Shown: positions 2,763-22,588 of the stretch, in pieces | How positions within the stretch are numbered: position 1 is the first letter of the stretch | Layout: each line of letters opens with the position of its first letter | Source of the DNA: Gemmatimonadales bacterium | Lineage (GTDB): Bacteria; Krumholzibacteriota; Krumholzibacteriia; LZORAL124-64-63 | Reading direction: 5' to 3' | Assembly: GCA_019038745.1 (NCBI GenBank) | Contig: JAHOYV010000046.1 | Span: forward strand, 32,431 to 96,430 | Length of the DNA: 64,000 nucleotides | Translations under genes and position numbers: made by a program | Notes under the pieces: model-generated | Seen by the model: only the letters and a program-made list of their open reading frames with translations | The model's database searches: none | What the model was told of the DNA's origin: nothing

Positions 2763-3782
2763 ATGAAAAACATCATCCTAATCCTCGCCGTGGTCGCCCT
2801 GGCAGCCCCCAGCTTCGCGCAAATCTCCCCTGCTCCTCTTGGCCAGGAGGCTGAAATATTCTGGTCCCACGCACCCTATGAAATGGGCGAATGCTCCATC
2901 TGCCACCAGAACAGTGATCCGAACAACCCTGGTGAATTGATCTCCGGAGTGAATGAGCTCTGCTTTTCCTGTCACGATATCTTCCAGGAGATGTTGGGGG
3001 AATTCGAGAACGTCCACTCGCCGGTAGAGAACTCCTGCATCGATTGCCATAACCCTCACAACTCACTCTACGGCAAGCTGCTGAACCTTGATACGGCCAA
3101 CCTTTGCGGAACCTGCCACGATGATATTATGGACGGGGTTCGGAATCACAAGGTCCAGCACGATGCCATCACCCAGGGCGATGCCTGCCTGACCTGCCAC
3201 GATGCCCACGCCACGAACGTGCAGGCCATGCTGCGGGCCCTGCCCTACGACTTGTGCGTCGACTGCCACGGTAAGGACGGCATGACCGATGAGCAGGGAC
3301 GTCCAATGACCAACCTGAAGAGCCTGATTGAGGGAGCCCACATGAGCCACGGCCCGGTAGAAAACAAGGACTGCTCATCCTGTCACTTCACGCATAGCGG
3401 TGACAACTTCAGGATGTTGACCGAATCCTACCCTGCCAAGTTCTATGCTCCCTACGAGGAAGAGAACTATGCGCTCTGCTTCAACTGCCACGAGAGCAAT
3501 GTTTTCACTTCCGAGTTCACCAGTACCTTGACCGGCTTCCGGGACGGCGACAACAATCTGCATTATATTCACGTAAACAAGGCCCGCCGCGGACGCACCT
3601 GCCGCTCCTGCCACGAAGTACATGCCTCACCGCAGGAACATTTGGTCCGTGACGGAGTACCTTACGGTTCCAGTGGATGGGTCCTGAAGATCAACTTCGA
3701 GAAACTTGAAAATGGTGGATCCTGCGCGAAAACCTGTCACCCGACCAAGCCCTACGACCGGGAGATGAACGCCTCACAATGA
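2763..3782 (+). CDS. Periplasmic ~10-heme cytochrome c (doubled-CXXCH family)
   Basis: Sec signal MKNIILILAVVALAAPSFA; 9 CXXCH plus terminal CAKTCH; paired CxxCHxxH...LCxxCH units. Confidence 0.92.
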   Translation: MKNIILILAVVALAAPSFAQISPAPLGQEAEIFWSHAPYEMGECSICHQNSDPNNPGELISGVNELCFSCHDIFQEMLGEFENVHSPVENSCIDCHNPHNSLYGKLLNLDTANLCGTCHDDIMDGVRNHKVQHDAITQGDACLTCHDAHATNVQAMLRALPYDLCVDCHGKDGMTDEQGRPMTNLKSLIEGAHMSHGPVENKDCSSCHFTHSGDNFRMLTESYPAKFYAPYEEENYALCFNCHESNVFTSEFTSTLTGFRDGDNNLHYIHVNKARRGRTCRSCHEVHASPQEHLVRDGVPYGSSGWVLKINFEKLENGGSCAKTCHPTKPYDREMNASQ

Positions 3783-4666
3783 AAGCCGGCTGGGCAAAGC
3801 TCCATTGTGTGAAATCAAATATGAGGGTGCATTGGCGCACCCTCAATGGAAAATGGCTATGTCTGGCCTTTACGTTGGCCCTGCTGGGCGTGGTCTCTGC
3901 TCCCGCTTCTGATCTTGCTTTCACCTTCATCGCCGAAGGCGATCTTCTGCCTGATATGGAACTGGACAGCGCCCGCGGGGGATCCGCCGGTTATCTTGGC
4001 GGGGAAGATTCCCAGGCCCGAGTCTTCGCGTTTGTGAAGGACGGCCGCGTCAGTTCCAACGAATTTCTGGAAACGATGGCCGGATTGCATGAGGAATTTT
4101 TGGGACGCCCAGTGAGCTGGTCATTGGTTGTCTCCAAACGTTGCTCTCCTGCCTGGATTGATACCGTGTGCAACCGCTGCCCGGATGTTTCGGTCCTGAT
4201 AGACAAGGATGACAAACTGTACGGAACTCTGGGAGTCCCCCTGACTCCCGTGGTTGGGATCGGGGATGGGGATCGGATCCTGCGGGCCTATTTAACCTAT
4301 CGCAAAATCAACTACCAGGCCCTGATTTCCGCCCACGTGAAATTCATTCTGGGCGACATCGACCAGGCCGAATTGGATCTGCTCCTGAACCCCCATGGTC
4401 GGATGCGGGACACGGTAGCCGGCAGCTCCGCCCGTAAGCTGAAGCTGGCCCGCCTATTGTTTGACAAGCAGAAGTTCGATCTGGCCATCAAGCAAGTGGA
4501 AAGCGCACTCAGCGAGCAACCGAACCTCCCGGAGGCCTACGAGCTGCTGGTCGAGATCCGCCTCGCCGGCGGAGACGAGGCTGGAGCCGCCGAGGCCCGG
4601 GAAAAAGCAGATGCATTGGCTGACTCGACAGCCGGTTCCGCCGAATCAAATGGAGACGGCAACTGA
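3779..4666 (+). CDS. Exported redoxin/thioredoxin-fold + TPR protein lacking CXXC active site
   Basis: Hydrophobic signal-like segment; GDLLPDMEL...VLIDKDDKLYGTLGVPLTP redoxin-like pattern; C-terminal TPR-like helices; ATGA overlap with upstream gene; exact start uncertain. Confidence 0.6.
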   Translation: MKAGWAKLHCVKSNMRVHWRTLNGKWLCLAFTLALLGVVSAPASDLAFTFIAEGDLLPDMELDSARGGSAGYLGGEDSQARVFAFVKDGRVSSNEFLETMAGLHEEFLGRPVSWSLVVSKRCSPAWIDTVCNRCPDVSVLIDKDDKLYGTLGVPLTPVVGIGDGDRILRAYLTYRKINYQALISAHVKFILGDIDQAELDLLLNPHGRMRDTVAGSSARKLKLARLLFDKQKFDLAIKQVESALSEQPNLPEAYELLVEIRLAGGDEAGAAEAREKADALADSTAGSAESNGDGN

Positions 4667-4726
4667 CCCCGAGGACTCGCCCCCATCGTTGTCGGACCTT
4701 GATTTTCACCAACAAGAGGAGTCTGT

Positions 4727-5395
4727 ATGCCCTCCCGGACGACCTGTTTGAGGATAACCACCCTGGCGGCTCTTTGCCTGCTGTCGACCGCTACGGCATG
4801 GTCGGGTGTTGAGGATTCCGTCCACGATTTCCGTACTGAATTATCCATTAACGAGGTCTGCGTCGTTTGCCACACCCCGCACAACGCGGTCGACCCCGCA
4901 GCGGCCGGCCTGGACTACGCACCCCTGTGGGGCCACGAGTCCACAGCCGGAGTGTACACCTTGTACTCCAGTGCCTCCCTCGACCATACTCCGGGGCAAC
5001 CGGACGGCAGTACCAAGCTGTGCCTGAGCTGCCACGACGGTTCCATCGCCATCGATAACTACGGCGGCACAACCACCGGCACCGTTTTCGTGGATGATGC
5101 GACTTTCGACGGTTCACCGGGATCCGCCTCGGGCAGCGCCCTGGATTTCGGAACGAACCTGGACAACGACCACCCCGTCTCGTTCAGCTACGATGCGGTG
5201 GCCACTGCGGATCCGGAAATCCTGCCCTCGACCACGGCAACACCCATCGGGGGCACCATCGCCAGCCGATTGCTGGTCGACGGCAAGGTCCAGTGCTCAT
5301 CCTGCCACGATGTGCACGATGTGGACGGCAACCCCAGTCTGTTGGTGGTCACCAACGATGGCAGCGCCCTTTGCCTGGTCTGCCACGACAAATGA
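4727..5395 (+). CDS. omcE: OmcE-like tetraheme cytochrome c (candidate nanowire subunit)
   Basis: Signal peptide; 4 CXXCH; motif order HDF..VCVVCHTPHNA..PLW..TLYSS..CLSCHDG..GTNLDNDHPVSF..QCSSCHDVHD..GSALCLVCHDK matches my recollection of G. sulfurreducens OmcE; strong RBS GAGGAG. Confidence 0.8.
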   Translation: MPSRTTCLRITTLAALCLLSTATAWSGVEDSVHDFRTELSINEVCVVCHTPHNAVDPAAAGLDYAPLWGHESTAGVYTLYSSASLDHTPGQPDGSTKLCLSCHDGSIAIDNYGGTTTGTVFVDDATFDGSPGSASGSALDFGTNLDNDHPVSFSYDAVATADPEILPSTTATPIGGTIASRLLVDGKVQCSSCHDVHDVDGNPSLLVVTNDGSALCLVCHDK

Positions 5396-6480
5396 GATCC
5401 ACAGCGAACAAAGTTCTGCTGATCGTACTTCTGAGCCTATCACTGGGTCTTCTTTTGAGTGGCTGCACCACCGCGCCCGGGCCATCGCTGAAGGAGGCGG
5501 TTTTCTACCCCAGCCCGCCGACCTCTCCTCGTCTGCAGTACCTGACCCACTATTCCGGCGCCGAGCAGGTAACCATCCAACCGGGAACCGCTTCCCGCTT
5601 TCTGTTCGGTGACTCAGCCCCCACCGAAGCCCTGTCCAAGCCCTACGGGATGGCCCTGCACGGCGGCAAACTTTACGTTTGTGATACAAAGTTAAATTCA
5701 CTAGTGATCTTCGACATCGCACAACACAGGTTTGGTTATACCGGACTTCAGGGCAGCGAACGCCTGCGCAAGCCCCTGAACCTCTGCGTGGACAACCAGG
5801 GCAACAAATTCGTGGCCGACGCCCTGCGCGGGGAAATCGTGGTATTCGATGAGAACGATGCCTGGACCACCGTTTTCGGCGGCAACCTGCTTCAGCGCCC
5901 GGTGGATGTGGCCTGGCTCGACGGCAAACTGTACGTTTGCGATGCGGACGCCTGCACCATAGTCGTTTTCGACGCGACCACCCATGAAAGGGTCACCGTC
6001 TTCGGTGGCAAGGGAGACGACCCGGGACAATTCGCGCGGCCCACCAATCTGGCTTTGGATCCCGAGGGGAACATCTACGTCAGCGACACCATCAACGGCC
6101 GTATCCAAAAGCTGGGTCCCGATGGGAATCACGTGGCCACCTTCGGCTCCCGCGGTGACCGTCCCGGGACCTTCGCCCGACCCAAGGGTGTGGCGGTGGA
6201 TCCGGAAGGCCAACTCTATGTAGTCGATGCCGCCTTTGAAAACGTCCAGATCTTCGCTCCTGCCGGCAGGATGCTGATGGACTTCGGCGGACCCGGCGCA
6301 GACCCGGGCAATCTGGTCCTTCCCGCCCAGGTGATCATCGATACCGATCACTTGTCCCTTTTCCGCGAACTGATCGAACCCGGTTTCAAGGCCGAGCATC
6401 TGGTATTGGTATCCAGCCAGTACGGACCTCGCAAAATCAGCGTCTACGCGTACGGCCGCTCCGAGGGGAGCGGCCACTGA
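5392..6480 (+). CDS. NHL-repeat six-bladed beta-propeller lipoprotein
   Basis: Start ATG 5392 (ATGA overlap); lipobox LLLSGC; repeats such as FARPTNLALDPEGNIYVSD and FARPKGVAVDPEGQLYVVD. Confidence 0.9.
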   Translation: MRSTANKVLLIVLLSLSLGLLLSGCTTAPGPSLKEAVFYPSPPTSPRLQYLTHYSGAEQVTIQPGTASRFLFGDSAPTEALSKPYGMALHGGKLYVCDTKLNSLVIFDIAQHRFGYTGLQGSERLRKPLNLCVDNQGNKFVADALRGEIVVFDENDAWTTVFGGNLLQRPVDVAWLDGKLYVCDADACTIVVFDATTHERVTVFGGKGDDPGQFARPTNLALDPEGNIYVSDTINGRIQKLGPDGNHVATFGSRGDRPGTFARPKGVAVDPEGQLYVVDAAFENVQIFAPAGRMLMDFGGPGADPGNLVLPAQVIIDTDHLSLFRELIEPGFKAEHLVLVSSQYGPRKISVYAYGRSEGSGH

Positions 6481-7139
6481 TGGGATGGAAGGGCGCGGCA
6501 GCACTCATCCTGCTGGGAATCCTGGCGGCCGGCTGCAGTGGCCCAACCCGGGACAAGTGGCTGACTGTCTTCTTTGATGATCCTCCCGTCGAACAAATAT
6601 CCAATCCCGTGGATTCCGACTTCCAGGCTACATTCACCGCACCCCGCGTAGCCGCCGCTGCAGCGGGAACAGCACACGCCCCCTTCGAAGCAGGCGCCTG
6701 TCAGGTGTGCCACGATCTTTCCGGCAGCACTTCCTTCCCCGGAGGCGGCGGCTGGCCGGGACGCGAACCTGACGCAGGAAGGGCCGACCAGTCCAAGCAC
6801 CCGGAGACTGCGGGCTCTGCCCGACTCCGTCTGCCCGGAGACCGCCTCTGCGGCGGTTGCCACAACGATCTCGACGTTGAAACCCTGGCCCAAACCAACC
6901 TCGTTGTACACGCTCCACTAGCTACCGGGGACTGCTGCTTCTGCCACGATCCGCACCGCAGTCCGTATCCACATCTCTTGAAACAGGCTGACAGTTCGGT
7001 CCTTTGCGTGGCCTGTCACGATCAGGAAGCGGCCGCACGTCGCTGTCACCATCCGGGGGCCGGGATACAATCCTGTGTATCCTGCCACCAGCCCCACGCC
7101 TCGGCCCAACGTTTCCTTCTCCGCCGGGAGGAGCCATGA
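6480..7139 (+). CDS. Pentaheme lipoprotein cytochrome c (doubled CXXCH)
   Basis: Lipobox LAAGC; CQVCH, CGGCH, CCFCH, CVACH, CVSCH. Confidence 0.88.
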   Translation: MGWKGAAALILLGILAAGCSGPTRDKWLTVFFDDPPVEQISNPVDSDFQATFTAPRVAAAAAGTAHAPFEAGACQVCHDLSGSTSFPGGGGWPGREPDAGRADQSKHPETAGSARLRLPGDRLCGGCHNDLDVETLAQTNLVVHAPLATGDCCFCHDPHRSPYPHLLKQADSSVLCVACHDQEAAARRCHHPGAGIQSCVSCHQPHASAQRFLLRREEP

Positions 7140-9127
7140 GGTTCCGAAACTTCATCTCGGCCAACTTGTTTCAATGGTTGACGGGCTTACTGCTGAGCAT
7201 CGTGCTTGCGACGGGCGCCCTGGCCAACGGCCCCGTCTACCTGGACGAGAGCTCACCCCAAAGGAAAATCGTGGCCTTGGATAACCTGGGCGGTTGGAGT
7301 GAATTCTTCGTGCGTGGGTCCCGCACACGAACGGGGGATTTTTCCCTGGATGAGACCATCCTGGCCCCGGGGATCCACCTGGATACCGCCGGTGGTCTGT
7401 ACGAGCGACAGCTGTTGACCTTTCGGGCCGGGGGAACCCTCAGCTACCAGCATCGCAGCCTGGACGGCACCGTGGAAAATTCCGACGATCTGTCTTTCCA
7501 GGATTTCGCGGGGAACCTGGATCTGCTCCCCGAAAAGCCTCTCAAACTGCACCTGTTCGGGAATCGCACGCACGGCTGGCATTCCTCGCCTTACAAAAGC
7601 AGTACGCGAACCCGCTCCACGGCTTGGGGAATCGGTGCGGATCTCGGCTTGGCTGAATTGCCCTCGACTCTGACCTGGTCACGAGAAGAATATCTGGAGG
7701 AATACTATTCCGGAGACCGGATCACGACCCGGGACCGTCTCCGCTTCGGGGTAAAACGAAGCAACGGGCCCATTCGCGGCTCCTTGACGATGCGCCACGA
7801 AGCCTTCCGCAAAAACCTCCAGCCCCAGAACTACAGCACGGACGGAGCCGACGGGCGCATCTCCTATCGACCCGGAAAAACCCTTGGCTTGGCCGGTTCC
7901 ATGCACTGGCTCCACCGTTACGGTTCCCGGGAACATACCAACTTCAGCACCCGCGCTACCACCCGCTGGAATCCCCGTCCCGACTTCGGAGGCCAGGTCG
8001 AAGCCGAACATCGACGCCTGCGTCCCGGCGGAAAAGACGTGCCCGTTGTCGCCGCCAACTCGGGAGCCCTCTCGGTTCGGCATCTGTTGTACGGGAGCCT
8101 AGAAACCACCATGGGCATGAACCTGCAAGACGAAACCAGCCGTTTGGATGATCTCGAAGTCGGAACCTTGCGCAGAACCAGCGGCCATCTCCGCCTGGAC
8201 TACAGGAGACGCCTGGCTGTTGGCGCTTTACAGCTTTCCACCAGTCGAACCTTGCTGCGTCAGGATCGGACCGGCACGGAAACCGAGCGCCCGGTGTCCA
8301 ACGAGGGGCATGTCCTGCCCGATTTGGCCGAAGTACGTCTTGAAAATCCGGACGTGGTGCCCGGTTCGGTGGTAGTTACCGACGCAACCGGGTATGTCGT
8401 CTACACGGAGAACCTGGACTTCGCCCTGACCGAAGTGGGAGGCTTCACCCTCTTGAATCGGATCCCCACCGGGGCCATCGCCGAGGACGAGCGGATCCAG
8501 GTGGATTATCGGTACCTGCTTTCTCCCGACCTGGTTTTTGACGCGGCGACCTGGAGTTTGGCCGCCCGCTTCGACGGCAACCGGGTCTGGTCGGTTTGGA
8601 CCCGGCACCAGGACACCGACGAAACTCCGGTTTCCGGATCCTCCGAAACCGGGTTGCAGGACCGAACCCGGAATGTGGCGGGCGGACTCCTGCGCCGGGG
8701 ACGGGTCACCCTGAGACAGGAATACGAAACTCATCGCCTGGCAGAAACCCGGTTCAAAACAAATCGTCTGCAGTTGGATACCCGGTTCCGACCCGGCCGC
8801 CGCTGGCGGGCTTCCGTGGGGGCCAACCACACGTGGTCCCGAACGGTCGCCCCACGACGCACCCAACGATACCTGCAGCTGAACGCCCGGACCGCATACG
8901 CCGGCGCCGGCGGTTCGACAGCAAGTCTGGAATCCTGGTTTCGCTGGAACGAGCGGGAAGACGGAATCGCCGCCCCCGGCGACGGCCTGTACGGTGGCCG
9001 ATTGCGCTACACACGTCGCTGGCGAGCCCTTACCCTTGAAGCGGAAGTCACCCTGCAAAGCACCGACCGCAACGAGATCGACGACGACCGGCTTGTCTTC
9101 CGCACCGGATTACGGAGGGTCTTCTGA
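7136..9127 (+). CDS. Large outer-membrane beta-barrel protein (~663 aa)
   Basis: Start ATG 7136 (ATGA overlap, GGAGGAG RBS); signal peptide ending ALA; alternating amphipathic strands; C-terminal Phe (RRVF). Confidence 0.75.
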   Translation: MRFRNFISANLFQWLTGLLLSIVLATGALANGPVYLDESSPQRKIVALDNLGGWSEFFVRGSRTRTGDFSLDETILAPGIHLDTAGGLYERQLLTFRAGGTLSYQHRSLDGTVENSDDLSFQDFAGNLDLLPEKPLKLHLFGNRTHGWHSSPYKSSTRTRSTAWGIGADLGLAELPSTLTWSREEYLEEYYSGDRITTRDRLRFGVKRSNGPIRGSLTMRHEAFRKNLQPQNYSTDGADGRISYRPGKTLGLAGSMHWLHRYGSREHTNFSTRATTRWNPRPDFGGQVEAEHRRLRPGGKDVPVVAANSGALSVRHLLYGSLETTMGMNLQDETSRLDDLEVGTLRRTSGHLRLDYRRRLAVGALQLSTSRTLLRQDRTGTETERPVSNEGHVLPDLAEVRLENPDVVPGSVVVTDATGYVVYTENLDFALTEVGGFTLLNRIPTGAIAEDERIQVDYRYLLSPDLVFDAATWSLAARFDGNRVWSVWTRHQDTDETPVSGSSETGLQDRTRNVAGGLLRRGRVTLRQEYETHRLAETRFKTNRLQLDTRFRPGRRWRASVGANHTWSRTVAPRRTQRYLQLNARTAYAGAGGSTASLESWFRWNEREDGIAAPGDGLYGGRLRYTRRWRALTLEAEVTLQSTDRNEIDDDRLVFRTGLRRVF

Positions 9128-10176
9128 TGCTCCGGTGGAATACACACCGACACGCGGGGATAGGTTTCCTGCTGGTGGGTACCTGGTTGGCGGCAAATAG
9201 TTTCCCCTTTCCTGCACAAGCCCAGGACCTTGTCTTTCCTGCCCCACCGGCCGAGGCCCGACTGGCCTACCTCGGTGAGATTTCCGACCTGGAGGCGTTC
9301 AGCAAGCCCCGAAACCTCATCGGCAAACTGACGGATTGGATCGCCGGAGGCAGACAGAAGCCACAATTGATTCAGCCTCACGGAGTAGGCCTGGGCGATG
9401 ACGCTCTGCTGGTAGCGGACCCGGAAACGGGCTTCGTTCACTACTTTTCCCTGGCTGATTCCACCTGGAAACGGATCCCGGCGAAGAACAGGCTGCACTC
9501 GCCAGTGGATGCCGCATCGGGACCGGACGGGGTGATCTTCATCTCGGATTCCGGGGCAGCCCAGGTAGTGGCCTGTGACAAGAACGGCGAAATCCTCTTT
9601 GCCTGCGACGGCCCTTTTGTCCGTCCCACCGGTCTGGCCTTCGACCAAGGCAGCGGACGCCTGCTTGTCGCCGATGCCGCCGCCCACCACCTGGTTTGGG
9701 TTGATCCGGACGGTAGCCGGTTGGGAACAATCGGGTGCCGGGGCACGGAGCCCGGGGAGTTCAACTTCCCCATCGACATTGCACTGACCTCCACGGGAAA
9801 CATTCTGGTCCTGGATGCCCTTAACTTTCGAATCCAGGTTCTGGATGGAGACGGGAATTTCGTGCGGGAATTCGGAGTCCAGGGCGATTCACCCGGCCGT
9901 TTCTCCAGACCACGCGGCCTTTGTGCCGACGCGGCAGACAACATCCTGGTTACGGACGCCCTGCAGGACAATTTCCAGATCTTCGACGCCACCGGACGTT
10001 TGTTACTGGCTGTGGGCGGCACGGGCCGGGATCCTGGATCGTTCTGGATGCCCGCGGGAATCTGCGCCGGGACCGATGGTCGCATTTTCGTAGCCGACGC
10101 CTACAATCGCCGGGTCCAGGTCTTTGCCTACCTGGCATCGTCCGGGCAGGACGGGCCGGAAGAAGGATCAGAATAA
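9127..10176 (+). CDS. NHL-repeat beta-propeller protein
   Basis: Signal peptide; repeats EFNFPIDIALT, FSRPRGLCAD, FWMPAGICAG..IFVADAYNRRVQVF. Confidence 0.9.
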   Translation: MLRWNTHRHAGIGFLLVGTWLAANSFPFPAQAQDLVFPAPPAEARLAYLGEISDLEAFSKPRNLIGKLTDWIAGGRQKPQLIQPHGVGLGDDALLVADPETGFVHYFSLADSTWKRIPAKNRLHSPVDAASGPDGVIFISDSGAAQVVACDKNGEILFACDGPFVRPTGLAFDQGSGRLLVADAAAHHLVWVDPDGSRLGTIGCRGTEPGEFNFPIDIALTSTGNILVLDALNFRIQVLDGDGNFVREFGVQGDSPGRFSRPRGLCADAADNILVTDALQDNFQIFDATGRLLLAVGGTGRDPGSFWMPAGICAGTDGRIFVADAYNRRVQVFAYLASSGQDGPEEGSE

Positions 10177-11897
10177 TGATGAGCCGAATCTCTCGTGTTT
10201 GTCTCTTGCTGACAGGGCTGGCGTGTTTGGCCTGGTTGATCCCAGCCGTCCAGGTCGGAAGCGCCCGGGCGGATGTCGTGAACACCCGCCACAACCTCTC
10301 GGTCAGTGGTCCGGGTACGGTGAAGGCCCTTGAGGAGACCCGAGTCTGCGTTTTTTGTCACACGCCACACTCGGCTTCGACCGAGGCCCAGCTCTGGAAT
10401 CGCAACTCTTCGGCCGCCGGCTACACACCCTACACCTCCTCCACCCTGGACGCCCTTGCCGGCCAACCAACCGGATCCTCTCGATTGTGTCTGGGTTGCC
10501 ACGATGGAACCATCGCCCTGGGATCGGTGATCAGCGAATCGACGGTAATCACCATGGCCGGCGGAGTAACGGTGATGCCGGACGGTGACACCAATCTGAA
10601 CGTCGACCTGCACGACGACCATCCGTTTTCCTTCCTCTATGACGCCGCCTTGGCTGCCTCCGACGGCCAACTCATCGACCCGGCCGTCCTTCCGGCCGAA
10701 ACCGTCCTGGACCCCTCCGGCGAAATCCAGTGCACCACTTGTCACGATCCGCACGACGACGCAAACGGCTTCTTCCTGGTGTTGCCGGGGGACGACGCCG
10801 GCCTCTGCGAAGCCTGCCACAGTCCCGACCAGTGGGCTTCGGCATCCCACAACACTCCACTGCTCCGTAAAATCCATTCCCCAGCCGCCACCGCGACGGC
10901 AACCGACTCCGCACACGACAAGGGCATACCATCGACCAACAGCTGTCTGAACTGTCACGACGCTCACGGCGGCGACGGCGGTGCTCGTCTGTTGGCCTTC
11001 GCCCGGGAAGAAGAAGGGTGCATTGTCTGCCACGGAGTCACCGGGCCCGCTTCGGACATCGAATCGGAACTGGGAAAGTTCTCCGCCCACCCGGTGGCGC
11101 TGACCGACGGCGTGCACGACCCCAGAGAGGCCCTACCGATAGCTTCGGCCCACGTAGAATGCGTTGACTGCCACAATCCCCATGCCACCCGCGCCGAGGC
11201 AACCAATGCCCCCGACGTACCCGGTGCACTTTCCGGAGTGCGGGGCCTGAACGGGGACAACGTGACGGTCGAGGAAGCGGCCTACACCTACGAGGTCTGC
11301 TACAAATGCCATGCCGGATCCGCTTGGAGACCGGGCCCGGCCACACCGCGCCAGGTGGTGCAATCCAACTCGATGTTGGAATTCGATCCTGGCAACCCCT
11401 CCTTCCACCCGGTGGAGGGACCGGGAAACAACCCCAACGTGCCCAGCCTGTTGCACCCCTACACCGAAACCAGCATCATCACCTGTACCGACTGCCACAA
11501 CAGCAGCGGCGATTCCCCCGCGGGCCTCCACGGATCGGATTTCCCCCACCTGTTGGGCTGGAACTACGAAACCGCCCAGGGCACCATCGAAAGCTACGAA
11601 GCCTACGAACTTTGTTACCGCTGCCATGACCGGACAACGATATTATCCAACGCCAGCTGGCAATCCCACCGCAAGCATGTGGTCAACGAGGGCTTCTCCT
11701 GCAACTCCTGCCACGATCCACACGGTATCAGCGCCACCCAGGGCGACGAATCAAACCACTCCCGGCTGATCAATTTTGATCTGACCTACGTGGAACCCGA
11801 AGATGATACCGGTTTGCTGGAATTCGTGGACAACGGGGGATTCGGCACCTGTACCCTGAAGTGCCATGGGGATAATCATCGCGACAAGAACTGGTAG
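10176..11897 (+). CDS. ~12-heme cytochrome c with N-terminal OmcE-like tetraheme domain
   Basis: Start ATG 10176 or 10179 (TAATG overlap); signal peptide; 11 CXXCH plus terminal CTLKCH; first four hemes colinear with the 4727-5395 product. Confidence 0.9.
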   Translation: MMSRISRVCLLLTGLACLAWLIPAVQVGSARADVVNTRHNLSVSGPGTVKALEETRVCVFCHTPHSASTEAQLWNRNSSAAGYTPYTSSTLDALAGQPTGSSRLCLGCHDGTIALGSVISESTVITMAGGVTVMPDGDTNLNVDLHDDHPFSFLYDAALAASDGQLIDPAVLPAETVLDPSGEIQCTTCHDPHDDANGFFLVLPGDDAGLCEACHSPDQWASASHNTPLLRKIHSPAATATATDSAHDKGIPSTNSCLNCHDAHGGDGGARLLAFAREEEGCIVCHGVTGPASDIESELGKFSAHPVALTDGVHDPREALPIASAHVECVDCHNPHATRAEATNAPDVPGALSGVRGLNGDNVTVEEAAYTYEVCYKCHAGSAWRPGPATPRQVVQSNSMLEFDPGNPSFHPVEGPGNNPNVPSLLHPYTETSIITCTDCHNSSGDSPAGLHGSDFPHLLGWNYETAQGTIESYEAYELCYRCHDRTTILSNASWQSHRKHVVNEGFSCNSCHDPHGISATQGDESNHSRLINFDLTYVEPEDDTGLLEFVDNGGFGTCTLKCHGDNHRDKNW

Positions 11898-11918: not shown

Positions 11919-12941
11919 TCAGTCTTCCGGATAACCATCCGGGTTTTCGGACTGCCAACGCCAGGCATCAACACACATCTCGGACAGCCCCTTCTCTGCA
12001 CGCCAGCCGAGCAAGGAAGCAGCCATGGCTGAATCGGCATAACAAGTAGCAATGTCTCCAGCTCGCCGATCGCCAATCCGGTAGGAAATTTCCCGGCCGG
12101 AGGCTTCCCTGCCTGCGGCAATCATCTCCAGGACCGAATACCCCTGGCCGGTGCCCAAATTCACGGCCGTGCAGCCCGGTAATCCAGGCAATTTTTCCAG
12201 GGCGACCAGATGTCCCAAGGCGAGATCAACAACGTGGATATAATCACGGACACCCGTTCCATCCGGCGTTTCGTAATCATCGCCGAAAACAACCACTTCC
12301 TCCCTCAAGCCTACGGCCACCTGCATGACGTAGGGCATCAGATTGTTGGGAATGCCATTGGGATCTTCCCCGATACGTCCACTGGAATGAGCCCCGATGG
12401 GGTTGAAATACCTCAGCAACAAACAGCGCCAGCGATCATCGGCAAGACACTGGTCGCGCAGGATCTCCTCGATGAAATACTTGGTCCGCCCATAGGGGTT
12501 TGTCGTCTGCAGAGGAAAATCCTCGGTGATCGGAACACTAGCCGGATCACCGTAAACAGTTGCCGATGAAGAAAAAACGATGTTCCGGCAATCGTGTTTG
12601 TCCATGGCCTTCATGAGTTCGAATGTACCGTGGAGATTATTCTCGTAGTAGCGCAGGGGTATTTCACAGGATTCGCCAACGGCTTTCAGGCCGGCGAAGT
12701 GGACCACGGCATCGAAAGTGTGTTCCTCGAACACCCTCTCCAAGGCAACCGCATCGCAAAGATCAACCTGACGGAACTCCAGGGATCGGCCGACCAACTC
12801 CTCGACCCGCCGCAGGCTCTCCTGGCTGGAATTGACCAAATTGTCCACAACGACCACATCGTGCCCGGCTTTGAGCAATTCCACGCAGGTATGGCTACCG
12901 ATATAGCCTGCCCCACCGGTTACCAAAATATTCTTTGCCAT
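11919..12941 (-). CDS. galE: UDP-glucose 4-epimerase
   Basis: [50 protein letters not shown]; start chosen 9 nt after AGGAGA. Confidence 0.96.
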
Positions 12942-13077
12942 AGCCTTCATTCTCCTGGATTGGGTTTTGGGCCCGTCCTGATATTTCCTCAACCACATGT
13001 TTGGAAGTTCGGCCGATAATATTATACCGAAAGAGTTGTTGCCTGCAAATCATGCCTTGATTTCCTATCATTCAATA

Positions 13078-13099: not shown

Positions 13100-13115
13100 A
13101 TAAATGAGGTTAACA

Positions 13116-13667
13116 ATGTCTGACGTTTCAGAGATCGACAAAGTTCTACGGGAAAACATCCGAATCATGGCGCAGGTCATCACGGAAGTTTGCCAGCGCA
13201 GCACGCGCAAGCAGGTCAGCCCCTCCACATTGTCCAGGAACCAGTTCTATATCCTGAACATCCTGGGCACCAGTGGGGAATTCCTGATCAGCGATCTGGC
13301 ACGGAGCCTGGACATCAGTCCTGCGGCTGCGAGCAAGAACATTGACCGTTTGGAGCAAATGGAATTCGTTGAACGCCGAGCCCGACCCGAGGACCGGCGC
13401 AGCCTTGAAGTGTGCCTGTTGCCCAAGGGCAAAGCCATCGTGGATGAGTTCAAACTCGTAACAATCGAAAAACAAGCCCCGCTCCTGGCCCAGTTCTCCG
13501 CCGAGGAGAAAGTGGTTCTGCTGGACCTACTGCGGAGAATCGTGAAGTACACCGTGAACGAGGAACACAACACCGAATTGATCTGTCTGCAATGCGGTGG
13601 AGCCTGTGGTGAAGAATGTGTCGTCAAAGACGGTATGGGGCCATGCGCCTTGCCGCCAAAACAATGA
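13116..13667 (+). CDS. MarR-family regulator with Cys-rich C-terminal tail
   Basis: wHTH ISDLARSLDISPAAASKNIDRLEQMEFVER..PEDRRS; tail CLQCGGACGEEC..C; GAGGT RBS before ATG 13116. Confidence 0.88.
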   Translation: MSDVSEIDKVLRENIRIMAQVITEVCQRSTRKQVSPSTLSRNQFYILNILGTSGEFLISDLARSLDISPAAASKNIDRLEQMEFVERRARPEDRRSLEVCLLPKGKAIVDEFKLVTIEKQAPLLAQFSAEEKVVLLDLLRRIVKYTVNEEHNTELICLQCGGACGEECVVKDGMGPCALPPKQ

Positions 13668-13725
13668 CCCTGCTCCAAATCCGGCGTGAATTCAGCCGGA
13701 CCAGGAGCGGAACAGGGAGTTGATC

Positions 13726-14655
13726 ATGGTCAGTCGTCGGGATTTCATGAAAATATCGGGAAGTGTGGCCGGAACTGCCGCCGCGTCCCTGGCCGGAGTA
13801 CAAACGGCCTGCGCGTCGGGGCATCACCTCGAACCGGACCGGATCGGGGTTTTGACCGACTACACCGAGTGTATCGGCTGCCGACGTTGTGAATGGGCCT
13901 GCGCCCAGGAAAACGGACTGCCCTTCGGAGACCTGGAATCCTGCGATGATCAGAGCGTCTTCCAGGAAATGCGACGTCCTGACGAGAGGCAGTATACGGT
14001 TGTGAATCGTTACCCGGCTCCCGAGGGTTCGGACAAGCCCCTGGATGTGAAGGTCAATTGCATGCACTGCGAGCATCCGACTTGCGTCTCGGCCTGCATT
14101 GTTGGAGCCCTCAAGAAGGACCCCATGGGGCCGGTGACCTACGATGCCTCGGCCTGCATCGGCTGCCGCTACTGCATGGTGGCTTGTCCCTTCCAGATCC
14201 CTGCCTACGAGTACCATGATCCTCTGACGCCCAAGGTTCTGAAGTGCACTCTCTGCACCGAACGCACGCTCGAGGAAAACAAAATGCCGGCCTGCGTTGA
14301 GATGTGTCCCAAGGAGGCCCTGACCTTCGGTCGCCGGGAGGATTTGCTGGACTTGGCTCGCGACCGCATCCGCCGCAATCCCGACCGCTACCTACCCCAC
14401 ATCTTCGGAGAATACGACGGTGGCGGCACTTCTTGGCTCATGATCGCCGACCGTGACTTTACCGAGGTGGATTTGCCTGAATTGTCTGACCGCAGCGCAG
14501 CGGAAATAACCGAGGGCATTCAACACGGTATTTTCAGGGGTTTTACAGGTCCCCTGATGGTCTTTGGACTCGTAAGCATCCTGGGCAAATCCATGGGTGA
14601 CCAGGAAGGTCGACTTGACCAGGAAGGTCAGCGTAAGGAGGGCGACAATGAATAA
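13726..14655 (+). CDS. hybA: Tat-exported 4Fe-4S electron-transfer subunit (HybA/HmcB/NrfC family)
   Basis: SRRDFMK Tat motif; CIGCRRCEWAC, CMHCEHPTCVSAC, CIGCRYCMVACP, KCTLC..PACVEMCP; C-terminal TM helix. Confidence 0.88.
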   Translation: MVSRRDFMKISGSVAGTAAASLAGVQTACASGHHLEPDRIGVLTDYTECIGCRRCEWACAQENGLPFGDLESCDDQSVFQEMRRPDERQYTVVNRYPAPEGSDKPLDVKVNCMHCEHPTCVSACIVGALKKDPMGPVTYDASACIGCRYCMVACPFQIPAYEYHDPLTPKVLKCTLCTERTLEENKMPACVEMCPKEALTFGRREDLLDLARDRIRRNPDRYLPHIFGEYDGGGTSWLMIADRDFTEVDLPELSDRSAAEITEGIQHGIFRGFTGPLMVFGLVSILGKSMGDQEGRLDQEGQRKEGDNE

Positions 14656-15943
14656 CCCAATCAACGGCAGCAGCGCAGGCGCCCTGCCCCTGAATGCCCC
14701 CGAGGCAACCGGCCATGGCGACCATGAGGTCTGCCTCCCCCTGGCCGAGCAGGGCCGGGTCCCCTTCATCACGCCGGGAGTCATGGTACTCATGGGCTTT
14801 GCGGCTATCGGGCTCCTCGTTTTGGCCGCCCGGTTCATCTTCGGCATCGGTGCGGTGACCAACCTGGACAACCAGTACCCCTGGGGACTGTGGATCGGCA
14901 TCGACGTGGCTACCGGAGTGGCCCTGGCCGCCGGTGGATTCACAACCGCCTTCATCGCCCACGTCCTGCACCAGAATCGTTACCACGAAATCGTCCGGCC
15001 CGCCTTGTTGACGGCGATGCTCGGCTACACTTTCGTGGCCCTGGGTGTGGTCGTGGATCTGGGCCGCTACTACAACATTTGGCACGTGCTGGTGCCGAAG
15101 TACTGGCAGGGTAATTCAGCCCTCTTCGAAGTGGGTATGTGCGTCTGCATCTACTTGACGGTGCTGTACATCGAGTTCCTGCCCATCGTGTGCGAGCGAT
15201 TCATCGGCCGGATCAACCTGCCGGGCCCCCTTGGAGCATTGAACGGCCCACTGGATAAGATCCTACGCCTGGCTGATGCAGCCTTGAACAAAACCATCAC
15301 GTTCTTCATCATCATGGGCGTCGTCCTGTCCTGTGCTCACCAGTCATCGCTGGGTACCCTGATGGTCATCGCCCCGACCAAGCTACACGCGCTTTGGTAC
15401 ACGCCGATCCTGCCGCTTCAGTTCCTGCTTTCAGCCTTCGCAGTGGGCCTGGCAATGGCCATTTTCGAGTCGCTGATCGCCTCAAGGTCGTTCAAACGGC
15501 CCTTCGAGATGAGCGTTCTGTCGCCGCTGGGACGGATGATTCCCTTCCTGCTGACGATCTATTTCGCAGCCAAGCTCATTGACCTGGTCAACCGCGGCGT
15601 CTTGCCGCTGGCCCTGGAGCCGACCCTCCAGGCAGCGACTTTCTGGATCGAGATCATCGGCGGAGTGCTCCTGCCCATTTTCATCTTCCTGATCCACGGC
15701 TTGCGCCGCCGGCCCGGTTGGCTATTCGCTGCCGCGGCCATGGTGGTCCTGGGCGTGGCCCTGAACAGGGTCAATGTATTCATCATCGGATATAAACCGT
15801 TGTTCGGTGACGGACCCTACGTTCCGGCCATTCCCGAGGTCCTCCTGACCATCGGCTTCATCTCCATCCTGACCCTGGTCTACCGGGCCTGGGTATTCAT
15901 CTTCCCGATTCTCCCGGTAGAAGGAGGTCACGACAATGCGTAG
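14648..15943 (+). CDS. hybB: NrfD/HybB-family quinone-interacting membrane subunit
   Basis: GAVTNLDNQYPWGLWIGIDVATGVALAAGG, VDLGRY, HQSSLG motifs; about 10 TM helices. Confidence 0.88.
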   Translation: MNNPINGSSAGALPLNAPEATGHGDHEVCLPLAEQGRVPFITPGVMVLMGFAAIGLLVLAARFIFGIGAVTNLDNQYPWGLWIGIDVATGVALAAGGFTTAFIAHVLHQNRYHEIVRPALLTAMLGYTFVALGVVVDLGRYYNIWHVLVPKYWQGNSALFEVGMCVCIYLTVLYIEFLPIVCERFIGRINLPGPLGALNGPLDKILRLADAALNKTITFFIIMGVVLSCAHQSSLGTLMVIAPTKLHALWYTPILPLQFLLSAFAVGLAMAIFESLIASRSFKRPFEMSVLSPLGRMIPFLLTIYFAAKLIDLVNRGVLPLALEPTLQAATFWIEIIGGVLLPIFIFLIHGLRRRPGWLFAAAAMVVLGVALNRVNVFIIGYKPLFGDGPYVPAIPEVLLTIGFISILTLVYRAWVFIFPILPVEGGHDNA

Positions 15944-17123
15944 CTTTTCTGCAACAAGACTCATTCTCCTGATGGTGATGTTGATAATCTTCCTGGTTCC
16001 ATTGGCCGCATTCGGAGCCGCATCCGGGACAGCGTCCGACCAAGTGGTAGATAAGGATCACCCCCAGGACAAGATGCATCAGGAAGAAACCGGTCGGAAA
16101 TTGCAGTCCTGCCTGGACTGCCACAAGTGCAAACGCCCCACTCGAAAAGACCCCTGTCTGGTGGCTTGCCCACGCTACGAGAGTCACTTCTTCAGCCAGC
16201 AGCAGGTAGAGGAAAGCCCGGAAATCATCATCATCGATCAGCTTTCCGAATTGTACGGGTCCGTTGTCTTCGCCCACCGCTTACACGCGGAAATGGCCGA
16301 GATGGCGGGCGGTTGCGAAACCTGCCACCACTATTCCGAGCAATCCGGGGTCATCCCACCTTGCCGTGAATGTCACGATGAAGAGCGTAACGTAGTGGAC
16401 CTGTCCAAGCCCGCCCTGAAGGGGGCCTACCACCGGCAGTGCATGAATTGCCACTTGGACTGGAGCCATGAAAACGCCTGCGGCTTCTGCCATGAGCAAG
16501 CCACCGACGAGTTGAGTGCAGTCACACCCGACACCACCGATATCGTGGGCATCCCGCATCCGATCATTGCGGCCACGCCTACCTACACCTACAACACGCC
16601 CCACGAGGACGGCCCCATCGTCACCTTCCACCACAATGACCACGTGGATATGTTTGGTCAGAAGTGTGTGGACTGCCACCGGGGAGACAGTTGCAGTCGC
16701 TGCCACGATGCCGATCGAGAAGAGGCGAAGCCGCTGAATCACATCACGAGCTGCTGCTCCTGCCACGGCAAGCGGGATTGTACGTTCTGCCACAAGGATG
16801 AGGCGATGCCCAACTTCGAGCATGGGTTGTCCACCGGGTGGTCGCTGGAGCCGTATCACACGGGCAAGGACTGCACCTTGTGCCACGGCAAGCCGGATTC
16901 CTTCCGTAAGCCGGAGACCACATGCACTTCCTGCCATATCCACTGGGAGGATGGAGCATTCAACCACGCCGTTACCGGTTTGACGCTGGACGACGACCAT
17001 ATCGACAGCGATTGCGTGGATTGTCACGTTAAGTTGGAGTTTACGATCACTCCCACTTGTGACAACTGCCACGACGAACCCATGCTGCCGGAAAAAATCC
17101 CCGGTCGATTGAAACTGCATTGA
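15936..17123 (+). CDS. 13-heme cytochrome c3-family (HmcA-like) protein
   Basis: Signal peptide; 13 CXXCH; c3-type motifs VVFAHRLH and LKGAYHRQCMNCH. Confidence 0.92.
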   Translation: MRSFSATRLILLMVMLIIFLVPLAAFGAASGTASDQVVDKDHPQDKMHQEETGRKLQSCLDCHKCKRPTRKDPCLVACPRYESHFFSQQQVEESPEIIIIDQLSELYGSVVFAHRLHAEMAEMAGGCETCHHYSEQSGVIPPCRECHDEERNVVDLSKPALKGAYHRQCMNCHLDWSHENACGFCHEQATDELSAVTPDTTDIVGIPHPIIAATPTYTYNTPHEDGPIVTFHHNDHVDMFGQKCVDCHRGDSCSRCHDADREEAKPLNHITSCCSCHGKRDCTFCHKDEAMPNFEHGLSTGWSLEPYHTGKDCTLCHGKPDSFRKPETTCTSCHIHWEDGAFNHAVTGLTLDDDHIDSDCVDCHVKLEFTITPTCDNCHDEPMLPEKIPGRLKLH

Positions 17124-17181: not shown

Positions 17182-18156
17182 TTAAAAACCCACTACATAC
17201 TGAATGACGGCCAAGTCCTCTAGATTGTCCCCGAACTGGTACTCGCAACGAATCTCGGCCCCCTCGCGCAGAACCCAACCACCACCCAGGCACAGGCGAT
17301 TCGTTTCAGGGTAGACAGCAGCGGGCGAATAGTTGCCATAGCGGGCAAAGACACTGTACTGCTCGAAACGATACAAACCCTGTGCGTAGTATCCCTCGTT
17401 AGTCTCCGGGTGGTCGGTGTTCTGGCCGAGTTTATGCGAAATGAATTCTCCCTTGGCGGAGAAAGCCCCCAATTCGAGCTGTCCATCCACACCCAACAAT
17501 GACTGAAATTCATCGCCGGCTTCATTGGCAACCGAGGCGTATGAAACGCCTACCTCTACCCTCTCGGTGGGCAGAAATCCCAAGCGACTCCCGAAGGCCA
17601 GGTCGGCCGTTTCGGTCTCGGAATCGAGTCCGTTGGTCACATAGAAAACGGCATTGAACGGACCATTCTCCAGATAGCTCATCATGCCCAAATCATTCCA
17701 ACCGTCGTGAGTCCCGGCCACCGCGATTGGCCCGGTTACAAGCTGGCGGTCGATTGAGGGATAGACCAGCCAGTCAATACCAAACGGAACATCGAACTGG
17801 CCAATGATTATGCCGGCGTGCTCAATCGAGGCTTCATTGAAATGGGTCTCAGCGTCGCCGAAGAGACGGAAATCAATGGTCATGGCGCCGAGTACGAAAG
17901 ACTCGCCCGCGGGATCATAGCCCATGGCCACACCCAGATCGATGCAATCGTCAATACTCGCCGCGATATCCACCTCTACTTGTCCCCAAAAAAATCCGGT
18001 ATCTCCCTCTTCGGAATCATCAACGACAACCTGCTGAAAATCAGCAAATCCACAGACGACCAACTCCGGTGCATCCTGCGCGACGGCCGAAGCGGTACAA
18101 AAACACACAACAAATACAAAGGTCAGAATATCGGTACAGCCTTTGCGATTTCCCAT
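17182..18156 (-). CDS. Outer-membrane porin (OprO/P-like beta-barrel)
   Basis: Signal peptide; IIIGQFDVPFGIDW motif typical of this porin class; amphipathic strands; C-terminal YVVGF. Confidence 0.75.
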   Translation of the reverse strand: MGNRKGCTDILTFVFVVCFCTASAVAQDAPELVVCGFADFQQVVVDDSEEGDTGFFWGQVEVDIAASIDDCIDLGVAMGYDPAGESFVLGAMTIDFRLFGDAETHFNEASIEHAGIIIGQFDVPFGIDWLVYPSIDRQLVTGPIAVAGTHDGWNDLGMMSYLENGPFNAVFYVTNGLDSETETADLAFGSRLGFLPTERVEVGVSYASVANEAGDEFQSLLGVDGQLELGAFSAKGEFISHKLGQNTDHPETNEGYYAQGLYRFEQYSVFARYGNYSPAAVYPETNRLCLGGGWVLREGAEIRCEYQFGDNLEDLAVIQYVVGF

Positions 18157-18541
18157 GATTGGATCTCCTTGGGCGGATATTTCAACACGTACACATCATG
18201 TTGTTTTTCGCCAAAAAGTCACAGGACTTGAGATCATGTTGTTGTTATTGGAGTTTTTTGAGAGGGGTGGTCCATATTCTGCCTGAAAGGCCGCCCAAAA
18301 CACTATTCGCGTAATTTCCCTTCCTCCACCACCGCAAGCCGACGAGATGAAACAGCAGGAACTGTACTCTTGCTACAATACTACCTCTTTACCTAGCAAC
18401 TGGTTAGGGCGCCTCATGGGAAATTTAAATATTTTAGCCTTATTTTAAACCATTTATTGTGATATCATGCTATTAATCGAATCTACAACTACCGGGATAT
18501 TTCTTCAATCCCGGACAAAAAACAGCAAAAGGAAAACCTCC

Positions 18542-18949
18542 GTGAACAACAATTACAAAATCAAGGGTCTCCTTTTGGGGTTTACCCTGATTCTGTGCGG
18601 GGCTACGGCCAGCGCAGCAATTGAAGACCAGGCTGTAATCGACGGCGGGATCAATCTGGAGGCAATGGTAGCCAAACATGTCGTCGTTTCGGTTACGAAC
18701 ATCGAAGTTAATCCCGACGGCACCGTAATCAACGGCCAGGTCAAGCGGCACCGTTTCGGGCCTCGTGGCCCGCTTGATGGAACAGTGGCGTTGGATGTTG
18801 TTTCTGCGGACGGTGAAGTTCTACAGCGCGTTTCCGGCAATATTTCCCCGAAGTTCGTCCCCAAGGGAATCCGGACTTCGACCTTCAGCATCACAATTCC
18901 CAAGAACTATCCGTTGGACGCCGCGTTCAAGCTTAGTTTTGTCGAGTAA
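18542..18949 (+). CDS. Small exported hypothetical protein (Ig-like beta-sandwich?)
   Basis: Probable GTG start after AAGGA; signal peptide ending ASA; beta-rich mature part. Confidence 0.6.
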   Translation: MNNNYKIKGLLLGFTLILCGATASAAIEDQAVIDGGINLEAMVAKHVVVSVTNIEVNPDGTVINGQVKRHRFGPRGPLDGTVALDVVSADGEVLQRVSGNISPKFVPKGIRTSTFSITIPKNYPLDAAFKLSFVE

Positions 18950-18968
18950 AACGCTACGTTCCAGAATA

Positions 18969-19006
18969 AAAAATTGGCGGCCTCCTCATGGTGACCGCCA
19001 ATTTTT
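18969..19006. terminator. Bidirectional intrinsic terminator
   Basis: AAAAATTGGCGG...CCGCCAATTTTT between convergent genes. Confidence 0.75.
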
Positions 19007-19025
19007 CTAGAACTGAACCAGGGTC

Positions 19026-20195: not shown

Positions 20196-20197
20196 GG

Positions 20198-20344: not shown

Positions 20345-20400
20345 GATGGCACCTTTCCCGGGCACGGCCCCTTCGAACAGGGACCGGCCGATCTTCCGAT

Positions 20401-22547: not shown

Positions 22548-22588
22548 CCTCAAACCTTTCCGATCAAGGGGAATCGACTGAAACCACC

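Follow-up and report, generated by a model that had tools for sequence, protein, structure and literature searches.

The gene cluster analysed here is best read against the omcE clusters of Desulfuromonadia, whose filaments have been solved from G. sulfurreducens (7TFS) and D. soudanensis (9YUQ). Petersen et al. (2026, mBio, PMC13712944; also a 2025 preprint) solved the OmcE bundle of D. soudanensis and described a minimal omcE cluster that consists of OmcE, two beta-propeller lipoproteins, two multiheme cytochromes and a large barrel, the barrel being regarded as a putative secretion pore or anchor. They report omcE homologues with these neighbours from five phyla (Thermodesulfobacteriota, Pseudomonadota, Aquificota, Campylobacterota and Nitrospirota), and the characterised OmcE organisms reduce iron and electrodes (PMC13712944). 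The conserved OmcE set comprises four CXXCH motifs plus four further His (PMC13712944), and in OmcE, as in OmcS, one heme is ligated by a His of the neighbouring subunit (review PMC12307469). How the filament starts, ends and attaches to the cell is called 'unanswered' and 'speculative' (PMC13712944, PMC12307469), and the accessible parts of Petersen et al. report no end-subunit protein within the omcE gene cluster.

We analysed a window of 64,000 nt of contig JAHOYV010000046.1, to which all positions below refer. The eight + strand genes at 2763-11897, most of them overlapping, probably form a member of the omcE-type cytochrome-nanowire gene clusters, in the minimal form without the glycosylation island, and a filament is predicted. 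An initial annotation of this stretch knew of no described nanowire system for the FCB-group candidate phylum in which it placed the host. The suggested novelty was overstated, since the 2026 paper already describes the architecture and proposes the barrel as a pore or anchor (PMC13712944). As this kind of cluster has been published, the window holds a new member and not a new system. What appears to be new is an extension of its range and three leads to the connection between filament and cell: an OmcE-like module in the largest cytochrome, an MtrB-like barrel and an MtrA-like decaheme cytochrome. The genes are listed below, where c10, c5 and c12 are shorthand for the 10-, 5- and 12-heme cytochromes, NHL1 and NHL2 denote the two propellers, and aa stands for amino acids.

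2763-3782, + strand: c10, secreted decaheme cytochrome, MtrA/DmsE-like (9 CXXCH and 1 CX3CH, 339 aa)
3779 (or 3821)-4666, + strand: redoxin-fold/TPR protein without active-site cysteines (TPR in Pfam, fold by Atlas model)
4727-5395, + strand: OmcE-like tetraheme cytochrome, presumed filament subunit (4 CXXCH, matches to OmcE in PDB)
5392-6480, + strand: NHL1, beta-propeller lipoprotein (Pfam NHL 1.6e-21, lipobox LLSGC)
6480-7139, + strand: c5, pentaheme lipoprotein (5 CXXCH, lipobox LAAGC, Paired_CXXCH_1 1.4e-22)
7136-9127, + strand: outer-membrane beta-barrel candidate, 663 aa (MtrB/PioB-like fold in Atlas model)
9127-10176, + strand: NHL2, beta-propeller with signal peptide (Pfam NHL 3.1e-30, no lipobox)
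10176-11897, + strand: c12, whole gene (11 CXXCH and 1 CX3CH)
10176-10850, + strand: c12 N-terminal OmcE-like tetraheme module, followed by His225 (match to 7tfs_A, 1.7e-25)
10851-11897, + strand: c12 C-terminal octaheme module (7 CXXCH and 1 CX3CH)

The open reading frames (ORFs), heme motifs and junctions were read directly from the sequence. ATGA overlaps lie at 3779, 5392 and 7136, TGATG overlaps at 6480 and 9127 and a TAATG overlap at 10176; the sole real intergenic gap is the 60 bases at 4667-4726, before the OmcE-like gene. All eight products carry N-terminal export signals, judged by eye. Pfam and NCBIfam back the cytochrome, NHL and TPR assignments. The initial annotation had described eight co-oriented, mostly translationally coupled genes with exported products, and these places and junctions hold, as do its heme counts, its two NHL proteins and the TPR.

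The OmcE-like subunit and the conservation of its cluster

The tetraheme protein matches the solved OmcE filament chains over nearly its full length (9yuq_N at 1.2e-21 and 7tfs_A at 3.2e-18 in a phmmer search of PDB), which bears out its earlier description as an OmcE-like subunit. Its eight heme Cys and eight His (H33, 49, 52, 103, 149, 194, 197 and 220) are invariant in an alignment of 64 free homologues, so that the four CXXCH and four further heme-ligating His of the published set are all present. These sequence comparisons identify the tetraheme protein as a true OmcE homologue. OmcE-like sequence occurs just twice in the host genome, as the free subunit and at the N-terminus of c12, and in a FastTree phylogeny of 163 OmcE-like domains both cluster with those of their own phylum. 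In each, the first conserved His lies 7 residues past the predicted cleavage site (GVEDSVH in the free subunit and DVVNTRH in the c12 module, by eye).

The cluster around this subunit has the same gene kinds as the omcE cluster of Desulfuromonadia, and the subunit keeps its four CXXCH and four further His. The two further multiheme cytochromes of the published cluster have counterparts in c5 and c12, with c10 in addition, and their homologues stand in the same order in a Geobacter sp. locus (L075; loci are given by our survey numbers) and elsewhere. There is no glycosyltransferase island, and one epimerase gene follows. The window thereby fits the 'smallest cluster' pattern that is tied to marine, alkaliphilic and thermophilic genera in PMC13712944. 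It differs in its host, which belongs to the Fibrobacterota-Chlorobiota-Bacteroidota (FCB) group and so falls outside the five phyla named in that paper. An MtrA-like decaheme gene and a gene for a cysteine-less redoxin-fold/TPR protein lead the operon. The purHDE...ffh frame described in PMC13712944 was not seen at the window cluster, which is flanked by PrkA-type kinase and epimerase genes instead. The published cluster has two beta-propeller lipoproteins. Two propellers are present in the window, and by eye a lipobox is seen in NHL1 only; the signal peptide of NHL2 lacks one, so that NHL2 is probably not a lipoprotein.

The initial annotation also noted that omcE loci carry NHL/propeller genes and additional multiheme cytochromes, which is stated in PMC13712944. 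To see how widely the set recurs, a species-level scan with one genome per GTDB species was made, and it returned at least 320 confirmed relatives among at least 597 pattern matches. The best 80 of these at least 320 relatives gave 79 loci which, together with 15 loci of the window's phylum, make up the 94 loci surveyed. All six gene kinds (omcE, nhl1, c5, barrel, nhl2 and c12) occur together in 39 of the 94, in agreement with the earlier expectation that the set is conserved. A c12-type gene is found in 69 loci, a barrel-family gene in 68 and both a free and a c12-type OmcE-like sequence in 52. Most of the 55 incomplete loci are short, at a contig end or without c5, and several Pseudomonadota loci are among those that lack c5.

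Complete six-kind loci carry 11 NCBI phylum labels in addition to the window's phylum, in which they number 8/15. By label they are found in Bacteroidota (6/10), Ignavibacteriota (6/6), Calditrichota (3/5), Chlorobiota (1/1), Planctomycetota (3/13), Thermodesulfobacteriota (3/6), Pseudomonadota (2/16), 'Myxococcota' (2/6, a label mapped from records titled Deltaproteobacteria), Acidobacteriota (1/3), Verrucomicrobiota (1/3) and Nitrospirota (1/4); two more are unclassified. The notion that the cluster is peculiar to the host lineage is thus contradicted. With 11 phylum labels here versus five in PMC13712944, the survey supports cytochrome filaments as a common sedimentary trait and not a Geobacter speciality. 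Within the window's phylum, the order omcE-nhl1-c5-barrel-nhl2-c12 is identical in L014, L015, L017, L019 and L026, where contigs allow. Variants of the order occur in L016, L018, L020 and L021, and L022-L025 have a different layout. The same order was also found in named loci outside the phylum, including Geobacter sp. L075.

Two variations of the free subunit were seen in the survey. Between two and four tandem or nearby free OmcE-like genes per locus occur in L031, L039, L050, L061 and L021, and seven free OmcE-like domains across all loci have five CXXCH. OmcE-like proteins with five CXXCH have been described as a possible 'leaky' OmcE-like family (PMC13712944).

A second OmcE-like module in the 12-heme cytochrome

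Residues 13-216 of c12 match the OmcE chain 7tfs_A at 1.7e-25 in the PDB phmmer search, which is better than the match of the free subunit itself. We aligned 66 full-length c12 homologues with the window protein (67 sequences). In this alignment, all 24 heme Cys and 28 His of c12 are conserved at a frequency of at least 0.9. The first 215 residues contain the eight OmcE-type His; these, the eight Cys of the module and H225, which is located ten residues past the fourth CXXCH, are invariant in 66 sequences and have a frequency of 1.0 in the 67. The 16 Cys of the octaheme module are all conserved at 0.99 or more, and this part of c12 has no sequence match in PDB.

In the tree of 163 domains, 74 rows make up a single clade of c12-type modules (SH-like support 99), apart from the free subunits. 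Support values from FastTree are local, and in another part of this tree a pair of long branches was flagged. The clade comprises 70 fused rows and four rows that were labelled 'free' by a length rule; the latter are accounted for by the split forms of L022-L024 and by the c12 of L080, which a contig end truncates. c12 is single-copy in 69/69 loci that hold it, and free subunits number one to four per locus. From alignment and phylogeny together, the first ~215 residues of c12 are a second, separately evolving OmcE-like module.

Split forms of c12 also occur. In L022-L024, a gene of its own encodes the c12-type module as a tetraheme protein of ~220 aa that ends two residues after the fourth CXXCH. 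The next ORF encodes an octaheme protein that carries a signal peptide of its own and a His at the predicted mature N-terminus (AHVDSPLL, GHIESPLL), which aligns by eye with H225-NTPLL of the fused c12. Among 61 sampled genomes of the family of the Geobacter sp. genome, 28 have c12-type matches, ~17 of them as a single-frame c12 and ~11 as two adjacent ORFs. All ten fetched split loci have an octaheme ORF that begins like a signal peptide and keeps a conserved H-L-D, placed 11 residues before the first CXXCH. This division into two neighbouring genes, one for an OmcE-like tetraheme protein and one for an octaheme protein, was observed in L022-L025 and L133-L142. The layout of L022-L025 differs from that of the window (nhl-omcE-gap-nhl-omcE-like-octaheme), with no barrel-family match in the fetched DNA.

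As the OmcE-like module of c12 and H225 are encoded within the cluster, and also in Geobacteraceae, we propose c12 as a filament end subunit. This proposal is tentative and we hold it with less than even confidence. The OmcE-like module would join the filament through the His-heme link, H225 would close the heme that is left open and the octaheme part would wire the filament end. The octaheme part may lead either to the MtrB-like barrel, as an anchor at the base, or to minerals, at the tip. Since the fused and the split forms both occur in Geobacteraceae, the proposal extends to that family. A point that speaks against it is the number of conserved non-motif His in c12, 16 for 12 hemes, with which counting His cannot settle whether H225 caps the OmcE-like module; it may merely ligate a heme of the octaheme module.

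A literature search found no description of the OmcE-like module of c12, with the reservation that Fig. 4D or the supplement of PMC13712944 may show the domain make-up, and there is none in the accessible parts of a survey of Desulfuromonadia cytochromes (PMC11492766). A parallel exists in the osc (omcS companion) cluster of G. sulfurreducens (Shen et al. 2025, as cited in PMC13194489 and PMC13712944), which also contains paralogues of its subunit, OmcT and OscC. The osc companions have been proposed to act in folding, porin-like secretion and morphology (PMC13194489, PMC13712944). This system differs in its subunit, as OmcS carries six hemes and shares minimal sequence similarity with OmcE (PMC12307469), and the osc companions are likened to those of the window by description. 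A single-copy cytochrome in the cluster, whose OmcE-like module is either fused to an octaheme wire or encoded next to one, is a testable candidate for the filament ends. If the proposal is true, c12 would be the end subunit that the field has been seeking, Geobacteraceae included.

Barrel candidate, companion cytochromes and propellers

The ESM Atlas holds a model of the exact 663-aa sequence, with a predicted template-modelling score (pTM) of 0.64 and a predicted local distance difference score (pLDDT) of 0.73. The nearest neighbours of this model are three unnamed clusters of its own family, at template-modelling (TM) scores of 0.86-0.87. They are followed by two clusters of MtrB/PioB outer-membrane barrels, at TM scores of 0.54-0.57 over 445-466 residues, and by a cluster with Porin_4 in 14% of its members. 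The protein has no Cys. It contains 10 alternating 10-mers versus 4.1 +/- 1.9 in shuffles, the best of 200 shuffles also reaching 10. Pfam and NCBIfam give the window protein no family assignment. The outer-membrane beta-barrel of the initial annotation is predicted by the Atlas model, and it is without a sequence match in Pfam or PDB. The family has 73 ORFs in the fetched loci, 63 of them of at least 560 aa. With the Atlas model and the presence of this family in 68/94 loci, including L075 of Geobacter sp., the window has a predicted counterpart of the large barrel of the omcE cluster. As its nearest named structural relatives are the MtrB/PioB porins, a role as electron conduit or anchor suits the barrel no less than one as export usher.

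Within the barrel family, conservation is highest at residues 381-470 (window 8276-8545), with a column conservation of 0.43 versus 0.30, and D428, Y429, G446 and Y458 are nearly invariant. This stretch may be a soluble insert or a plug domain. It has a sub-threshold match to an NCBIfam model of a phage tail tube (5.7e-5, 22.7 bits versus a cut-off of 60). Longer proteins of the family, of ~910-965 aa, were seen at 11651-14386 of L075 (Geobacter sp.) and at 11740-14634 of L058 (Desulfobulbaceae); they exceed the usual ~660-aa form by some 250-300 aa.

The decaheme cytochrome c10 is matched by Pfam Paired_CXXCH_1 at 4e-48, and its best PDB match is 6r2q_A (333 aa, 9.9e-11). We take this chain to be MtrA of the MtrCAB complex, for which the PDB table prints an odd molecule name. 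c10 homologues lie in or beside many clusters, often directly 3' of the barrel gene in loci of Bacteroidota, Ignavibacteriota and Calditrichota. c5 matches 6r2q_A weakly, at 1.1e-4. Its gene is directly 5' of the barrel gene, and this c5-barrel order is conserved. In much the same way, mtrA lies 5' of mtrB. The window cluster resembles the MtrCAB system of Shewanella (6R2Q) in having a large barrel with an MtrB/PioB-like predicted fold, a decaheme cytochrome of ~340 aa with 6r2q_A as best solved relative, and a lipoprotein cytochrome and a larger outer cytochrome within one operon. It differs in that its barrel has no sequence match to MtrB_PioB, c10 is under the DmsE/MtrA cut-off and there is no MtrC/OmcA-type cytochrome as such, and in that it adds an OmcE-like subunit, two NHL propellers and the OmcE-like module of the large cytochrome. 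The literature search found neither the MtrB/PioB resemblance of the barrel nor the MtrA resemblance of c10 described for omcE clusters. Next to c12, the two are further candidates for the filament-cell connection that can be tested in Geobacter or Desulfuromonas, for which genetics and cryo-electron microscopy exist.

These likenesses raise the alternative that the cluster encodes a porin-cytochrome conduit of the MtrCAB/Pcc kind and no filament. The barrel would then sheathe c10 or c5, with c12 and the tetraheme protein as terminal reductases at the surface, either monomeric or in small oligomers. The predicted barrel fold, the matches of c10 and c5 to the same chain and the gene order reminiscent of mtrA-mtrB all agree with such a conduit, and in D. 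ferrophilus, multiheme clusters that contain NHL genes have been assigned to an outer-membrane cytochrome complex (Deng et al. 2018, PMC5815863). We nevertheless consider a conduit without a filament quite improbable. Two homologues of the tetraheme protein, from clusters of the published make-up, have been solved as filaments (7TFS, 9YUQ), and the window protein keeps all eight heme-ligating His, one of which is used across subunits in OmcE (PMC12307469). The conduit and the filament can, moreover, both hold.

The redoxin-fold/TPR protein between c10 and the OmcE-like gene was called a redoxin in the initial annotation. The fold stands, as the Atlas model of the N-terminal half aligns with Redoxin-fold clusters (TM scores by row 0.72-0.81) and of the four syntenic homologues, L070, L094 and L045 score above the AhpC-TSA cut-off (1e-7 to 2e-10) and L083 below it. 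The window protein itself has TPR matches only in Pfam and no redoxin match there, and none of the five aligned proteins (the window and the four syntenic homologues) has a CXXC at the active-site position of thioredoxin. A catalytic redoxin was rejected for lack of active-site Cys; a binding or chaperone protein is more likely than an oxidoreductase. The Atlas record begins at residue 15, which corresponds to the ATG at 3821. The order c10-tpr-omcE recurs in L070 and L094.

Each propeller gene adjoins an OmcE-like sequence. An nhl gene lies directly 3' of the free OmcE-like gene in 55 of the 89 cases with room downstream, 52 of these being nhl1-type. Directly 5' of c12, an nhl gene is found in 58/62 cases with room upstream, 56 of them nhl2-type. 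Together with the separate clade of the c12 modules, these adjacencies indicate that the cluster holds two paralogous pairs of an OmcE-like module and a propeller. They also fit the interpretation of the initial annotation, in which the barrel is an usher-like export channel, the NHL proteins serve as scaffolds or chaperones and the remaining cytochromes as relays, so that the cluster would be a self-contained export and assembly system. The N-terminal export signals on all products point the same way. As a whole, this interpretation appears rather unlikely to us. The predicted barrel resembles conduit porins and not ushers, no ATPase, usher or chaperone family was found among the eight products with Pfam and NCBIfam, and it leaves unexplained why a 'relay' cytochrome should have a complete OmcE-like module in 69 loci.

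Several observations weigh against the reading of 2763-11897 as an omcE-type nanowire cluster with a conduit-like barrel. TM scores of 0.54-0.57 to MtrB/PioB are merely moderate. None of the 59 barrel-family members matches a porin family of Pfam, MtrB_PioB (PF11854) included, at E <=0.01, and a profile of the family matched no PDB chain. The classical C-terminal signal is not conserved, since Phe ends only 2 of the 59 members and R or K ends 20. c10 matches the DmsE-family decaheme model TIGR03508 at 9e-22 with 77.7 bits, under its cut-off of 192.2, and NHL2 lacks the lipobox of the published propellers. Of 201 genomes sampled from the host's phylum, only 15, host included, have an OmcE-like gene (by family, host excluded: f1 6/86, f2 0/12, f3 1/7, f4 0/42, f5 2/23, f6 1/9, f7 0/8, f8 4/12 and f9 0/1), and a genome of the same genus that is ~96% complete has none. 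In Geobacter itself, the need for OmcE and OmcS filaments in extracellular electron transfer is disputed (PMC13194489, PMC11077965).

Under the omcE-type reading, which we prefer, the parts could work together as follows. All products of the cluster would be exported. c10 and the lipoprotein c5 would carry electrons from the periplasm to the MtrB/PioB-like outer-membrane barrel. c12 would link this conduit to the filament, with its octaheme part as the wire and its N-terminal OmcE-like module as one end subunit, and the free OmcE-like subunit would polymerise onto that module through the His-to-neighbour-heme bond known from OmcE filaments. Each propeller would serve the OmcE-like client next to it, NHL1 the free subunit and NHL2 c12.

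The sequence does not decide in which direction electrons would flow, outward to minerals or partners or inward. An inward-working system would take up electrons from minerals, metallic iron or partner cells in sediment. In principle, multiheme wires can work in both directions, NHL-containing cytochrome clusters have been tied to electron uptake (Deng et al. 2018, PMC5815863), and the single DNA run that is listed as holding the window, possibly the source sample itself, is labelled marine sediment metagenome. The Desulfovibrio genes concerned (DFE_448-451 and DFE_461-465) are, however, likened to the window cluster by description only, and those organisms in which OmcE has been characterised reduce iron and electrodes (PMC13712944). 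Electron uptake as the role of this cluster seems very unlikely.

Host and genomic surroundings

The host is a metagenome-assembled genome of 3.58 Mb in 112 contigs that is 91% complete. In an RpoB tree of 16 rows, the host and two genomes of its phylum fall inside a clade with a support of 99 in the Shimodaira-Hasegawa-like approximate likelihood ratio test (SH-aLRT). This clade also holds the rows of Gemmatimonadota, Calditrichota, Bacteroidota and Chlorobiota, with the host outside each of them. Rows of Geobacter, Myxococcota, Acidobacteriota, Planctomycetota, Verrucomicrobiota, Nitrospirota and Sumerlaeota fall elsewhere. Host RpoB is 58% identical to that of a Calditrichales genome. The placement is that of one marker and few taxa, and it supports a host in an FCB-group lineage that is not Geobacter and lies outside the four named FCB phyla sampled, in accordance with the earlier suggestion of a non-Geobacter, FCB-group host. 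The window would add an uncultured FCB-group lineage to the possible builders of OmcE-type nanowires.

The L078 row of this tree is a wrong ORF on a long branch, and L078 was corrected by BLAST only. Left out were the genomes G205 (12 stops), G209 (fragments) and G194 and G215 (no match), as well as the second fragments L117, L124, L131 and L132. In G205, an Ignavibacteriaceae genome that carries L114 and L118, the rpoB match at C24:121695-125325 has 12 in-frame stops (3 TGA, 1 TAG and 8 TAA), probably a stretch of assembly or long-read error.

The cluster lies in a mild rise of G+C content, 0.60-0.62 across 4-12 kb versus 0.54 on either side and inside the range of the window (0.51-0.63). A promoter-like site lies at 2682-2710, in the AT-rich spacer 5' of c10. 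A scan for promoters and terminators was at chance (4 promoter-like sites versus 3.5 in shuffles, 11 terminator-like sites versus 11.3), and such promoter-like sites are no commoner here than in shuffles. A run search found no RNA sequencing runs that hold the window. The following features flank the cluster:

257-2608: PrkA-type kinase gene, upstream of the cluster
11919-12998, - strand: NAD-dependent epimerase gene, downstream of the cluster
13104-13667, + strand: MarR-family regulator (Pfam MarR 1.1e-15), between the cluster and the NrfD-like modules
13720-17123, + strand: module 1, with a Tat-signal 4Fe-4S protein, an NrfD-like membrane protein and a 13-heme cytochrome
19026-22553, - strand: module 2, a paralogue of module 1 (30-39% pairwise identity)

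We infer that the MarR regulator is associated with the cluster. Module 1 was assigned from matches to Fer4_11, NrfD and Cytochrom_CIII, 13 CXXCH and an RRDFMK N-terminus. The two modules could be inner-membrane quinol:cytochrome c oxidoreductases that feed the cluster. Their linkage to omcE clusters as a general feature was rejected, as none of the 94 other loci has a homologue, apart from one weak match to the Fe-S protein. Between the modules, a secreted-looking protein of 324 aa is encoded at 17182-18156 (- strand), with a sub-threshold match to the S-layer SlpA beta-barrel domain (1.5e-5, 24 bits versus a cut-off of 35). Next to it, the ~870 bases at 18157-19025 hold no ORF that reaches 180 aa. 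Housekeeping genes make up the remainder of the window, namely guaA and genes for an ABC-F protein, a class-III aminotransferase and peptidases.

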